A DNA stretch of 29,900 bases from a virus (lineage: Duplodnaviria; Caudoviricetes): the IMG/VR virus record IMGVR_UViG_3300022177_000077, positions 1-29,900 of that record; one strand, 5' to 3'. The position numbers and the translations under genes were made by a program. The notes below the pieces were generated by a model. It was not told where the DNA came from, did no database searches, and saw only the letters and a program-made list of their open reading frames with translations. This document shows positions 8,697 through 27,305 of the stretch, piece after piece (position 1 is the stretch's first letter; each line of letters begins with the position of its first letter).

Positions 8697-9205
8697 CCGT
8701 GAGCCCTGACTTTGCTGCTGTCAGTAAAGATGACCCGACTGACGCAGTGTTCACGGTAACAGGGGGAAAGGTGACGCTTACTGCCCTTAAAAACGGAGTG
8801 TCAACTGTAAATGCGGAGAATTACACTTATTCCGATGCAACAGACAGGCTGACAATTAAGGGTACTTATCTCGGCACGCTGACTGCAGGAGATAAGACTT
8901 TCACTTTGGTTACGAATGTCGGAGATTTTGAAGTCGAGATATCGGTGGTAGACACCTCTCCAACAACTGACACCTTCAGCAAGGCGGCTGCGGATGACAT
9001 AGCAGTTACGATCACAGGGACAACAGATCTGATCCAGGTCAAAAACGGCAGCGCTGTTTTGACCAAGGATACCGATTACACTGTGGCTGCCGGCGTAGTT
9101 ACCCTGAAGAAGGAGTATTTCTCCGCGCAGGAAAACGGAGACGTTGTTATCACATTTGTAACCGGAGTGGGAAGTTTCACCTGTACGGTAACTGTGGGAG
9201 ACTAA
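8687..9205 (+). CDS. Tandem X2/Ig-like domains, probably a frameshift extension of the major capsid protein
   Basis: Two ~83-aa repeats (LKNGVSTVNAENYTY..LTIKGTYL / VKNGSAVLTKDTDYTV..VTLKKEYF) resembling CBM_X2; no RBS before GTG 8699. Confidence 0.8.
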   Translation: MGVTVSPDFAAVSKDDPTDAVFTVTGGKVTLTALKNGVSTVNAENYTYSDATDRLTIKGTYLGTLTAGDKTFTLVTNVGDFEVEISVVDTSPTTDTFSKAAADDIAVTITGTTDLIQVKNGSAVLTKDTDYTVAAGVVTLKKEYFSAQENGDVVITFVTGVGSFTCTVTVGD

Positions 9206-22868: not shown

Positions 22869-23075
22869 ATGGATGTTCTGACTTTTTACAAGTTAGCAAA
22901 AGGGTTTCGACACATCAACGCCTTCGCCGTCACGGTTCAGTCCGCTGTCGAGACGGGCCACTGGACAAGCCCGTTATGGCTAAATACTTACAACGGAGCA
23001 GGGCTAAAAGCACCTCCGTCATGGCGAGCAAGAATAAACGAATTAGAAGAGATGATGGAGCAATTAGATGTTTAG
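22869..23075 (+). pseudogene. Truncated glucosaminidase (GH73-like) endolysin remnant
   Basis: MD..TFY..AK...IN.FAV.VQ...E...W...L....N.AGLK...W aligns with the N-terminus of 23328-24491, then diverges after ~52 aa. Confidence 0.75.
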
Positions 23076-23327: not shown

Positions 23328-24491
23328 ATGGACAACGCTACATTTTATGAAAAGGCAAAAAAACACAGCAAGTTAATAAACCCGTTTGCGGTGCTTGTCC
23401 AGTGCAATTGGGAGTCCCGCGAAAAAGGGAAAGAGTGGGCAACCGAACTTTGCACGAAAGCGAACAATTGCGCGGGGCTGAAGGTTTGGAACGAGTGGAA
23501 CGGCGCGGTCTACCCAAAGGTTTCATGGGAGCAGAATTCTGACGGCACGAAGGTGAACCGCATGAGCCTTTTCTGCAATTACGCGACTATCGAGGAATTT
23601 ATGGAGAACTACGTGCTGAAGATAACCTCAAGCTATCCGAAGTGTTATCTCAAGAGGGACAACTTCTTCGGATATTTTGACGGGCTTTTTGAGGGCAAGT
23701 GGGGAGCTTGGGCAACGGACAGGGCTTACTTCTCGCGTCTGGTAAGCAACGCGATAGCCCTCGCGCCTCAGATATTCGGCGATGGGTGGGAGCGCAAAAT
23801 AATGTTTGCTTACGAATACGCTATTGACAAAAGGTATCTGTCGGACGAACGGCAGAAAATTCTCACAGAACTCCTTGGGTCTGCGGTCGCTGTCGACCCC
23901 TTGCCAGTGTCTAAGCAACCCCAGAAACTTATCTGCCTTGACTTCGGACACGGGGGAAAGGATTCTGGCGCGTTCCAGAACGGCATCAGAGAAAAAGATG
24001 TCAACCTTGCTTACGGTCAGCGGATCGGTGCGAACCTTTCTGGGCTTGGATACGACCTCATGTACACGAGGGTAGGTGATGAATATGTTCAGCTTTCGGA
24101 AAGGGCGCGTATCGCGGAAAGGCACAGACCTTTACCTTTGGTATTTCTGAGCTTTCATGCGAACAGTTCGGTCAGAATAGATGCAAGTGGATTTGAGGTT
24201 TATACGTATTACGGGCAGGATGAGAGCGACAGGCTTGCGACCGAGATTATTAAGTCCGTACAGAGGGCGTTCCCGAGTATGAAAATAAATAAGGATATGT
24301 CAGACGGCGATCCCGACAAAGAGGCGAACTTTGCTGTTCTAAGGGAAACCCCGAACATTCCATCCGCGCTTGTAGAGCTTGGTTTTTTGAGCAATCCGAC
24401 AGAGGCAAAAAATATTATGAACACGAACTATCGCGAGAAACTTTGCTTTGCGATAGCTCGCGGAGTTGATTCCTTTCTGGGGGGAGCGTGA
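23328..24491 (+). CDS. Endolysin: glucosaminidase (GH73-like) + N-acetylmuramoyl-L-alanine amidase (Amidase_3)
   Basis: QCNWES, NNCAGLK, WATD; LDFGHGGKDSGA, EKDVNL, FLSFHANS, LVELGFLSN. Confidence 0.92.
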   Translation: MDNATFYEKAKKHSKLINPFAVLVQCNWESREKGKEWATELCTKANNCAGLKVWNEWNGAVYPKVSWEQNSDGTKVNRMSLFCNYATIEEFMENYVLKITSSYPKCYLKRDNFFGYFDGLFEGKWGAWATDRAYFSRLVSNAIALAPQIFGDGWERKIMFAYEYAIDKRYLSDERQKILTELLGSAVAVDPLPVSKQPQKLICLDFGHGGKDSGAFQNGIREKDVNLAYGQRIGANLSGLGYDLMYTRVGDEYVQLSERARIAERHRPLPLVFLSFHANSSVRIDASGFEVYTYYGQDESDRLATEIIKSVQRAFPSMKINKDMSDGDPDKEANFAVLRETPNIPSALVELGFLSNPTEAKNIMNTNYREKLCFAIARGVDSFLGGA

Positions 24492-24922
24492 GTGATCGGA
24501 TGGAAGACATGAGGCAAGTAGACATCAAACAGCTAGAAATTGCCATGCAAGCGACATTGAACGCATCTTTGCAAGTTATAAGCAAAGAGATTTTCACAAA
24601 GCTCGACTTAGACAGCGAGAAGAAACAGCGGTCGATTGACAAGATTTATGAAAAGATCGACGAGAAGTACAAGCGACAGGAGAAGTGCTTGAACGATTTT
24701 GTTGACAAGGTTGACGAACGGCTCGATGAGATGGACAGCGAAATCTCAGCCATAAAAATCGAGTGTGCCATCAGACGAGCCCCTTTTGAGCGGGTCGTTG
24801 CTCATGTCGAGACTCCGCATGAGGATAACGATTCGTGGGCATACAGGAAAATCGGAGAACGGTTTGTCCAGATCGTTTATGGGGTCATCATCGCGTACCT
24901 GTGTTGGAGGATAACGCGGTGA
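24488..24922 (+). CDS. Coiled-coil protein with C-terminal TM helix (holin-associated/XhlA-like)
   Basis: Charged heptads followed by FVQIVYGVIIAYLCW; located in the lysis module. Confidence 0.55.
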   Translation: MSDRMEDMRQVDIKQLEIAMQATLNASLQVISKEIFTKLDLDSEKKQRSIDKIYEKIDEKYKRQEKCLNDFVDKVDERLDEMDSEISAIKIECAIRRAPFERVVAHVETPHEDNDSWAYRKIGERFVQIVYGVIIAYLCWRITR

Positions 24923-25167
24923 AGCTGAACGAGAAAAATATCCTAGTACGCCTCTTTTTCACGTGGGGGGGCATCCCTTGGAAGAAGCCTCTTATCATGG
25001 TGTCGTGCGTCCATTTTCTCGTAATGGAAACGATCGGTCAGTTCTTCGGAAGGGACATTCCGCCCATTCTAGGCGAGATTTACAAGGTTTATATGTTCAC
25101 GGTCATTACGGCTGGCTTCGGCAGTTCCACGATCGAGGCATTCAGAGGCGACAAAAAGAAAGAGTGA
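24919..25167 (+). CDS. Putative holin (two TM helices, charged C-terminus)
   Basis: GGAGG RBS + GTG 24919; two hydrophobic segments, tail RGDKKKE. Confidence 0.6.
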   Translation: MKLNEKNILVRLFFTWGGIPWKKPLIMVSCVHFLVMETIGQFFGRDIPPILGEIYKVYMFTVITAGFGSSTIEAFRGDKKKE

Positions 25168-25172
25168 TCGCG

Positions 25173-25475
25173 ATGGAGAACAGGTCAAAGTGGATCAAAT
25201 TATTCGCGCTAATTGTTGTAATTGTTTGCGGTGTTCTGATTTACAAAACTGTCTACGGCAAGCCAGAGGCTTTGCAGAACGCGCAGAATGTGACTAACAG
25301 CGTTATTGAGCAGGGAACGGCTCACACCGAAACACAAAGGGAGAAGGTGAAAAATCATGCTGAACAGGCAAAACAGGAGGCGCGTAGAATCCGCGAAACT
25401 GTTAGTAAGGATATTTCTCGCCTTGACGGTGACGGCGTTGCTGATGCTGTTCGTGGGGCTATCCAGAGGCCGTAA
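25173..25475 (+). CDS. Rz/i-spanin-like protein, copy 1 (probably 3'-truncated)
   Basis: N-terminal TM helix + coiled coil; ISRLDGDGVADAV resembles ITDLDNDAVAAAW of 25595-25975. Confidence 0.55.
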   Translation: MENRSKWIKLFALIVVIVCGVLIYKTVYGKPEALQNAQNVTNSVIEQGTAHTETQREKVKNHAEQAKQEARRIRETVSKDISRLDGDGVADAVRGAIQRP

Positions 25476-25641
25476 ATGGGCCGATGACTTAATAGACAAG
25501 ATACTGTGGCAGCGGTATGGGCAAGGCAGCTATTACGGCAGCAATCCGTTTGGCCCACAAAATAACTTGAATAATCTCCAGGGAGATGATTCTGATGGAA
25601 ATACGAATAATGGAAATCAAGAGCTGGATCCGCGGGAATAA
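25357..25641 (+). pseudogene. Chimeric overlapped ORF: signal/TM segment of outer spanin-like copy 1 fused to unrelated sequence
   Basis: AKLLVRIFLALTVTALLML parallels AKLLKLLLILIMMLL of 25839-26315 in the same +1 overlap geometry. Confidence 0.45.
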
Positions 25642-25975
25642 ATGGGCGCTGCTGATCCTGATCGTAGCTTTAGCCGTCGGTGCTGCATTCTTCTATGTCA
25701 CTCACAGGACAGTGAAGCCCGGACACGTGGTCCAGTTTCCAGCAGCAGCTATATCAGCAGATATATCCGCAGCACGCATAGATGAGCTTATCAAGGACAT
25801 CAATAGTCAAAGATTCCAGGAAGAGGAGGTTGTTCGCAATGCGAAACGCAAAGCTGTTAAAGCTATTACTGATCTTGATAATGATGCTGTTGCCGCTGCA
25901 TGGAATGCCCGCATCGGCGAATACAGGGAGTCCAGGCAAAATCAAAACGGCAGAACCGGGAACGATCGTAACTGA
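25595..25975 (+). CDS. Rz/i-spanin-like protein, copy 2
   Basis: N-terminal TM helix (WALLILIVALAVGAAFFYV) + helical domain; at the end of the lysis module. Confidence 0.6.
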   Translation: MEIRIMEIKSWIRGNKWALLILIVALAVGAAFFYVTHRTVKPGHVVQFPAAAISADISAARIDELIKDINSQRFQEEEVVRNAKRKAVKAITDLDNDAVAAAWNARIGEYRESRQNQNGRTGNDRN

Positions 25976-26315
25976 AAGTGCCTATTTAGTGCCACTAGAA
26001 GACGGCAGAGACACTTTAGAGCTTATAGATACCCAATCCGCTGAAGTTAAGGCATTACAGGGCATCGTGGCGTCAAAAGATATTCAGATTGATAAACTAA
26101 TATCGGCTGTTGATGGTCTTAATAAGAACCGTCTGCAGGAACGTACTGAATGGCAGGAGCAGGTAGGATCTCTTGCGAATAAAAATATTGCTTTAGATAA
26201 AAAACTTGCAATAGAAAAGCGTAAACGATGGGCGATTGGCATCTTCGGGGGGCTTGCTAACAGCGGCGAGGGCGTTATAGGAATAGGAATAACTTATGAT
26301 ATTATTAGATTCTAA
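25839..26315 (+). CDS. Secreted coiled-coil protein ending in a beta-hairpin and Phe; candidate non-lipoprotein outer spanin
   Basis: GAGGAGG RBS; signal peptide with ASA site, no Cys; C-terminus WAIGIFGGLANSGEGVIGIGITYDIIRF; 137-bp overlap with the upstream gene. Confidence 0.6.
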   Translation: MRNAKLLKLLLILIMMLLPLHGMPASANTGSPGKIKTAEPGTIVTESAYLVPLEDGRDTLELIDTQSAEVKALQGIVASKDIQIDKLISAVDGLNKNRLQERTEWQEQVGSLANKNIALDKKLAIEKRKRWAIGIFGGLANSGEGVIGIGITYDIIRF

Positions 26316-26515: not shown

Positions 26516-26683
26516 ATGGCAACGAGCAGTATTTATACTAGCGTAAGAGTAAAAAACAAAACAGACTGTAAAAAGCTAGTTGCTGCGTTGGAGCACGCAA
26601 TGGGCAAGAAAGCAAAAAAAGTTGTGTTTTCACGCTCAGTTGAGGTAATGAAAGGAGAAAAGGTTAAAGACCTTTTCAAATAA
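26516..26683 (+). CDS. 55-aa basic protein, putative antitoxin partner (below ORF-track cutoff)
   Basis: GGGAGG RBS; MATSSIYTSVRVKNKTDCKKLVAALEHAMGKK...DLFK; stop 1 bp before the GNAT start. Confidence 0.7.
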   Translation: MATSSIYTSVRVKNKTDCKKLVAALEHAMGKKAKKVVFSRSVEVMKGEKVKDLFK

Positions 26684-26684
26684 T

Positions 26685-27305
26685 ATGTCAGACAAACAGA
26701 TTCAGGGGTATAAGATTATATCTTTGAGTGATATGTTAAAACAGCTTGAAGAAGAGAGGACTGGGCAGATCCTCTCTTCTTTTTCGTCACCGTTGAATAA
26801 TGATGTAGAGTATTTTTTGAAGCAAAAAGCGATTCTTTTTGATAAACAATCAATATCAAGGACGCATTTAGTCTTCACGTCTTACCGTGGCGAAGTTGTC
26901 TTGGTAGGCTATTTTACACTTGCTTATAAGGAGTTTACAATACCTGCCAAAAATATTAGCAGGAAATTGAAAGATAGAATCAATAAATTCGGCAACTACG
27001 ATTGCGATATAAGAGCGTATAAAATATCTGCACCTCTGATTGCGCAGTTGAGTAAAAATTTTACCAATGACTATTGCAAACTGATTACCGGAGATGAGCT
27101 TCTTAAAATGGCTTGTGATATGGCTTCGGAAATACACATGATTGCCGGTGGAAAAATTGTATATGTCGAATGTGAAGATAATGTTAAATTAAGAGATTTT
27201 TATGAGGACAACGGTTTTGTTATATTTAACGAACGTCAGCTTGACGCAAGGTCAAAAGAAAAAATGGGTGTAGATTACTTACTGCAACTTTTACGCTATT
27301 TCTAA
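26685..27305 (+). CDS. GNAT-family acetyltransferase, toxin-like
   Basis: FSSPLNNDVEYFLK, LVGYFTL, APLIAQLSKN, VYVEC, LRDFYEDNGF. Confidence 0.8.
   Translation: MSDKQIQGYKIISLSDMLKQLEEERTGQILSSFSSPLNNDVEYFLKQKAILFDKQSISRTHLVFTSYRGEVVLVGYFTLAYKEFTIPAKNISRKLKDRINKFGNYDCDIRAYKISAPLIAQLSKNFTNDYCKLITGDELLKMACDMASEIHMIAGGKIVYVECEDNVKLRDFYEDNGFVIFNERQLDARSKEKMGVDYLLQLLRYF

Follow-up and report, generated by a model that had tools for sequence, protein, structure and literature searches.

The Lol machinery is practically absent from the Terrabacteria, the Synergistetes included, according to the available part of a published study (10.1101/2021.05.31.446380). This raises the question of how the phages of these bacteria cross the outer membrane. 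The question is posed in concrete form by two overlapping genes, B and C, in a 29,900-nucleotide stretch of viral DNA, which we refer to as the window. The window covers the later half of a long-tailed Synergistota prophage, with terminase, portal, capsid and tail genes, the lysis cassette, an integrase, tRNA-Val and the host dapF gene. We suggest that B and C probably form a two-component spanin in which the C-terminal hairpin of C, predicted to oligomerise into a small outer-membrane barrel, takes the place of the lipid anchor. That the pair has a spanin-like role in some form is, in our judgment, highly probable.

An overlapped gene pair in the lysis cassette

The B/C pair ends the lysis cassette, with endolysin and holin-like genes directly upstream; all cassette features given here are on the plus strand. 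The endolysin (23328..24491) has glucosaminidase-like and Amidase_3 family matches. It is followed by a 144-aa helical protein with a C-terminal hydrophobic segment (24488..24922; no family over the cut-off), which is a possible lysis accessory, and by an 82-aa holin-like membrane protein (24919..25167). The latter has no family match; relatives have a similar gene ahead of the B-type gene. In the lysis cassettes of relatives, B and C are kept together while the type of endolysin changes, and the pair is not always the last there.

Several other features of the window were recorded. A 68-aa ORF at 22869-23075 resembles the start of the L003 glucosaminidase-type lysin and is an apparent remnant upstream of the intact endolysin. 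After the cassette, a low-GC pair at 26516-27305 encodes a 55-aa protein (phrog_3291) and an acetyltransferase (phrog_1758), and looks like an antitoxin-toxin moron. Directly after the capsid gene, two CBM_X2 (Ig-like) matches at 8699-9205 point to a possible head decoration protein. A second gene with a tyrosine-recombinase domain (2215-2826) adjoins a DNA methylase gene upstream of the terminase.

Gene B (25595..25975, 126 aa) is i-spanin-like, with an N-terminal membrane helix and then a helical segment. The hydrophobic run W17-V35 (25643..25699), with a best 19-residue Kyte-Doolittle mean of 2.58, is the predicted inner-membrane helix, and the C-terminal WN...YR helix has W103, N104, Y110 and R111 invariant in 29 rows. 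B gives a weak match to a PHROG Rz-like spanin (E 0.06), and C matches no spanin family in profile searches. Gene C (25839..26315, 158 aa) encodes the predicted outer component, and neither protein contains a cysteine. It lies in the +1 frame; its ribosome-binding site GAGGAGGT (25823-25830) and its ATG at 25839 fall within B (together 25823..25841), and the overlap is 137 bp. The initial annotation had recognized this geometry, an N-terminally anchored protein with a +1-frame partner that has its own ribosome site. It placed the start of the partner 137 bp inside B; the number is right, but it is the distance from that start to the end of B.

The overlap is a stable property of the family. 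Among 29 hand-picked distinct pairs, 28 have a hydrophobic upstream gene, a +1-frame partner, a ribosome-site-like sequence and an overlap of 74-218 bp; the sole miss, L197, has an uncertain start. Four of the pairs came to light from the DUF6808 hairpin alone, and these too have the overlap. The start codon and ribosome site are at the same place in all 18 loci that have upstream DNA (L015 is truncated). In 17/17 loci the overlap is free of stops in the C frame, against 4-17 stops in the B-only part, a count that is partly circular because the loci were picked for C. Third-position divergence in B drops clearly within the overlap in the window's own group (0.46 to 0.21) and slightly in two other groups (0.35 to 0.30 and 0.38 to 0.35). 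Gene C is real, and its overlap with B is not due to chance. Many gene callers favor a start of C at V51; we discarded it because there is no ribosome site at V51 and the upstream site is conserved.

A profile built from 39 close homologues of C found a match in 15 of 268 Synergistota genomes. This close profile yielded 31 clusters at 50% identity, and a broader profile yielded 411 proteins. The named close homologues are from Synergistaceae, plus one entry labelled Macellibacteroides. Searches by tblastn with C and a helix-type homologue against 50,697 phage records found nothing. The A5 versus A7 profile match involves rows common to both and is partly circular, and it was set aside as evidence.

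Upstream of B lies gene A (25173..25475), a second i-spanin-like gene with seven weak Rz-like PHROG matches, whose 3' end has been cut by recombination. BLASTP gives no alignment between A and B. A comparison of A with the B family at the profile level gives a probability of 90.9 and an E of 1.2e-6, and by this measure gene A is a distant homologue of B. Its own +1 partner has left an orphan start and a signal-like region at 25357..25456. The A-type cassette passes into the B/C-type cassette at a 12-bp microhomology common to both types (25445..25456), and 25445..25641 holds the surviving 3' end of a 146-aa membrane-protein gene, which in relatives lies ahead of B. Identity to L001 begins near 25447. 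In runs of three other studies, contigs match the window up to 25456 and then diverge, and in two of these studies' runs other contigs join at 25445. Only run X1 contains the joined form uninterrupted, and the window may itself come from that run. Since 12 bp should be too short to mislead a 31-mer assembly, the junction is likely a natural recombinant. An intact partner of A was not found in the viral and metagenome scans, and gene A is probably a partnerless relic.

Signal, rod and terminal hairpin of C

Residues 1-27 of C (25839..25919) make up its predicted type I signal peptide, which was identified by inspection and lies over the codons of the conserved last helix of B. It has a K/R-rich n-region, a Leu/Ile/Met h-region and PASA followed by N28, and n, h and A-x-A regions are also present in the homologues, likewise by inspection. 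The proposal of an outer component without cysteine or lipobox was borne out for C itself, and its N-terminus looks like a type I signal. The canonical lipobox, as defined in the available part of PMC6139136, occurs in none of 57 full-length homologues and in 1/30 of a wider set, though 21/57 fit a looser, PROSITE-like lipoprotein pattern. A cysteine for lipoylation is not a requirement in the family. Nearly all of the 21 belong to one GTAC subfamily. We read the GTAC cysteine as part of a type I cleavage region, and lipidated GTAC members are possible.

These cysteines bear on whether B and C are an outer-membrane device at all. Both could be inner-membrane lysis accessories, or C could be a lipoprotein or a part of the virion; the loose lipobox-like motif fits this, and so do 13 homologues in which a signal to be cleaved is combined with a hydrophobic C-terminal helix, the layout of an inner-membrane protein. 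These helix tails are the strongest point in favor of this explanation. The hydrophobic N-terminus of C could also be partly a by-product of B codons. However, 30/57 homologues have no cysteine in residues 15-36, Ser takes the place of Cys at the same column in close relatives, and the start and ribosome site of C are conserved. Every host named among the matches belongs to a diderm lineage, monoderm genomes being outside the search, and we know of no beta-hairpins of the pattern described below that serve as inner-membrane anchors. We consider this explanation quite unlikely.

The AlphaFold2 model of C (75 rows, mean pLDDT 82.9) has a short beta neck, a helix at 53-128 and strands at 131-139 and 145-153. 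The pLDDT is 82-85 over the neck, the helix and the hairpin, and a model from 39 rows agrees at lower confidence. The small neck, together with a YxVP..DGRDT motif (residues 36-59; 25944..26015), is the putative contact for B. The helix of 76 residues (25995..26222) would be about 11 nm long at 0.15 nm per residue. The long coiled coil claimed at the outset is real, but its d face is polar, with hydrophobic residues at 8/11 a positions and 3/11 d positions. A Foldseek search of the first C model against BFVD and PDB gave no match at E 0.001, and VIA-align returned only generic long helices (best Z 5.8), a comparison in which the hairpin was barely probed.

The terminal amphipathic hairpin (W131-I155) and a three-residue tail ending at F158 occupy 26229..26312 and are DUF6808-like. 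The two predicted strands and the YDIIRF end agree with what the initial annotation had described. A DNA pattern for the tail, scanned in 29 of 64 parts of IMG/VR, gave at least 119 loci; 118 of them end an ORF in frame and form 36 clusters. In the 36 cluster representatives, the seven odd positions that the pattern leaves unconstrained (135-155) are 0% polar, the even positions 136, 152 and 154 are 78-100% polar, and position 146 is Tyr in 30/36, opposite the invariant Gly138. In the 75-row alignment, four Gly positions show 93-97% conservation. Phe136 lies opposite Gly148 in the Synergistota alignment; on the hydrophobic face W131 is paired with Y153, and the register shifts after residue 155. 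Alternating, two-faced strands are the pattern of transmembrane barrel strands. The sequence alternation and the AlphaFold2 monomer give the C hairpin one lipid-facing face and one polar/glycine face, with an aromatic girdle. Such a girdle and such alternation are described for barrel strands in the available text of PMC13067283.

The end of the hairpin had been taken as a C-terminal beta-signal for BAM, and this did not hold in its strict form. The strict terminal GxxPhixPhi motif is found in 1/75 homologues and in 0/36 cluster representatives, where its absence is fixed by the search pattern, while 62/75 have a relaxed motif plus three further residues and 73/75 end in an aromatic residue. 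A BAM substrate with two strands per chain would be unusually small. One DUF6808 hairpin gives a weak match to OmpW (E 0.0077), and some OMPs have no terminal beta-signal, as stated in part of PMC13067283. We regard the use of BAM by the C hairpin as plausible.

Distribution of the anchors and the host envelope

The hairpin is also found outside overlapped pairs. C scores 19 bits against Pfam DUF6808 (PF20647), below the cut-off of 24.4 bits, and the match is limited to the last 35-43 residues; two Synergistota homologues, L155 and L161, pass. Most of the pattern matches are single-chain proteins. Of 15 tested tails, 12 pass the DUF6808 cut-off and 10 match PHROG 26448, a family of unknown function. 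DUF6808 and PHROG 26448 share with C the terminal W-G-x-G...G-x-G-x-x-Y...aromatic hairpin and the position in a lysis cassette, but the middle of C is a coiled coil and C has a separate partner gene. We studied the context of 28 representatives with upstream DNA, after 8 had been dropped for lack of it. A hydrophobic N-terminal segment is present in 27/28, with a lipobox-like motif inside the segment in 4. In 17/28 the gene closest upstream encodes a wall hydrolase, from five Pfam families. Because these proteins combine an N-terminal anchor with a hairpin end, they would have one membrane anchor at each end, as a spanin does. Two hairpin queries match Bacteroides and Polaribacter phages, and the gene follows the endolysin in both records that were opened. 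A positional spanin label for the single-chain form, not including the hairpin anchor, may already exist: in the available part of PMC8354205, the 177-aa gene that follows the BV01 lysin is called 'O-Spanin' on the basis of its position and a lipoprotein prediction.

Two further observations concern the same hairpin. One cluster (L087, L104 and L115) has a separated two-gene form with a different inserted gene in each locus and surroundings that do not look like lysis genes; no lysin was seen within 5 kb. A 4.6-kb record labelled Inovirus (MT135313.1) contains an unannotated DUF6808-like ORF and could be a piece of a tailed phage under a wrong label.

The long rod, the conserved partner and the inner-membrane-anchored single-chain forms point to a role in spanning the envelope. 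They speak against C as an outer-membrane pore or disruptor that is held latent by B and that permeabilises the membrane instead of fusing it. A protein pore would moreover be too small for virion release. We find this idea very improbable, even though Gly-lined hairpins could build larger rings and a non-fusion route exists in gp28 of phage phiKT, as given in the available part of 10.1101/515445.

Within the family, the barrel is not a rule. A search with the divergent homologue L019 gave a match in 30/268 genomes; 30 loci were fetched and 19 read, the other 11 being places already seen. In 12 of the 19 the C-terminal end is a Gly-rich hydrophobic segment of 15-19 residues, in 4 it is a hairpin, and 3 are broken or partial. 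With L019, the helix-ended set comes to 13 (L019, L174-L180, L185, L186, L190, L192 and L197). They have the same overlap and, among those tested, no PHROG match and no Pfam match over the cut-off. Since these homologues keep the rod and the overlap but have a Gly-rich helix at the end, the family does not depend on a barrel. Hairpin-bearing L173 shares 49% identity with L019, whose end is a helix. When signal and anchor are removed, a tree of 30 rods (L178 was left out as a near-copy of L177) needs four changes of anchor type. Supported branches require two of them, and the rejection of a single helix clade is only marginal (p-AU 0.045). Because homologous rods carry either a hairpin or a helix, with these four changes, the C anchor is, as judged from the rod tree, a swappable module.

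This interchangeability also fits a different account, in which the tail of C acts as a fusion peptide that inserts itself into the outer membrane from the periplasm, as viral fusion proteins do, with neither BAM nor a closed barrel, and in which the signal might not be cleaved. In hydrophobicity the helix tails fall short of the anchor of B (19-residue means of 0.6-1.8 versus 2.6); they may escape retention in the inner membrane, and they could also be inner-membrane anchors. The rarity of the strict beta-signal is in line with self-insertion as well. However, the two-faced alternation, the cross-strand aromatic-glycine pairs and the nearly constant terminal aromatic residue are a better fit to a closed transmembrane barrel. 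We give the fusion-peptide account a minor but appreciable share of our expectation, and retain the barrel-anchored spanin as the preferred model for the window.

The host is a diderm of the atypical kind that the initial annotation had foreseen. The host DapF is 99% identical to that of the Synergistota genome G184, the best of 268 genomes searched. BamA is present in 39 of 41 sampled Synergistota genomes, G184 included, and LolA was found in none of the 41 searched. G184 has BamA and LpxC and no match to three LolA families. Among five prophage-bearing genomes, LpxC is present in 5/5, LolA_2 in 0/5 and Lnt in 0/5 over the cut-off. LolC/E is found in 0/41 over the cut-off, with weak matches in 40/41, and a Bacteroides control was likewise under the cut-off; the best LolC/E match in G001 adjoins an ATPase gene and a membrane-fusion-type gene, and we read it as an efflux system. 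The host-genome LolA result agrees with the available part of 10.1101/2021.05.31.446380. The only LolA-like gene in the 41 genomes (L028/L166, at about 1347-1353 kb of G044:C1) adjoins two LolC/E-like permease matches. The pair likely serves to break the outer membrane of a host whose lineage yielded no LolA in the genomes searched.

The absence of Lol is not the whole reason for the hairpin, as had been supposed, because the hairpin is also used by phages of Bacteroides, and the Bacteroidota have LolA and LolB, according to the available part of 10.1101/2024.09.13.612696. The hairpin is, as predicted, Lol-independent by design, but it is not confined to hosts that lack Lol.

Proposed mechanism and relation to known spanins

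What the analysis shows is the order and overlap of the genes, their sequence features, the predicted fold of the monomer and the genes present in the host; we infer the localisation, the oligomer, the use of BAM, the binding of B to C and the fusion step. B would sit in the inner membrane with its N-terminus inside, a topology that is predicted. Sec would export C, and signal peptidase I would cleave it behind A27. Several C hairpins, for example four giving eight strands, would then insert into the outer membrane, probably with BamA, so that the 11-nm rod hangs back into the periplasm. There the conserved N-terminal neck of C could meet the conserved last helix of B, tip to tip. After the endolysin has removed the wall, the B-C rods may fold back and fuse both membranes, comparable to the proposal for lambda Rz-Rz1.

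The pair resembles the overlapped two-component spanins (P2 architecture; lambda Rz/Rz1 mechanism), as described in the available part of PMC6139136, in its lysis-cassette position, its N-anchored helical inner component, and a partner that starts inside B in another frame and runs past its end. As in those systems, the partner is often mis-started by gene callers, here in many 108-109-aa entries. Unlike the outer component of Rz/Rz1-type spanins, however, C has no lipobox, is C-terminally anchored and itself bears the long coiled coil. In addition, 507/528 known two-component pairs have periplasmic cysteines, according to part of the same survey, whereas B and C have none. Though the pair would work like an overlapped spanin, we have not filed it as an Rz/Rz1 member because C failed the lipoprotein test.

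The unimolecular spanins, such as T1 gp11, have one membrane anchor at each end, and the single-chain DUF6808 relatives, with their beta-rich-looking middle, are similar in this respect. In T1 gp11 the outer-membrane lipid is at the N-terminus and the inner-membrane helix at the C-terminus, as given in the available part of PMC6139136, whereas the DUF6808 single chains are predicted to be inverted. The system of the window differs from the T1 gp11 type in having two genes, no lipobox and a hairpin tail, and we do not class it as a u-spanin.

Trimeric autotransporter anchors also consist of a signal peptide, a coiled-coil stalk and a multi-chain barrel, with four strands per chain and the stalk outside. 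C is alike in its signal peptide and coiled-coil stalk, but it has two strands per chain and its rod is predicted to be periplasmic.

In the available portion of the spanin survey (PMC6139136), the types described all depend on a lipoprotein to reach the outer membrane, and 91/677 phages are without a recognisable spanin. We found no description of a hairpin- or barrel-anchored spanin in the literature searched, judged mostly from titles and the starts of abstracts, and 'DUF6808' was not found in any paper of that literature. B/C is likely a new, lipid-free spanin variant. As a broader proposal, which we regard as possible rather than probable, the DUF6808 hairpin would be a portable outer-membrane anchor of two strands per chain. 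It would define a lipid-free spanin class that is overlapped and two-component in Synergistota and inverted and single-chain in Bacteroidota phages, with a Gly-rich helix as an interchangeable anchor.

The B/C pair is a concrete, cloneable candidate for the crossing of the outer membrane in Lol-poor diderms. It assigns a likely role to DUF6808/PHROG 26448, a gut-phage family of unknown function, and the natural swap between hairpin and helix allows the requirements of the fusion step to be tested. If the broader proposal is true, a portable hairpin anchor would explain how phages burst diderms that are unable to send lipoproteins to the outer membrane.
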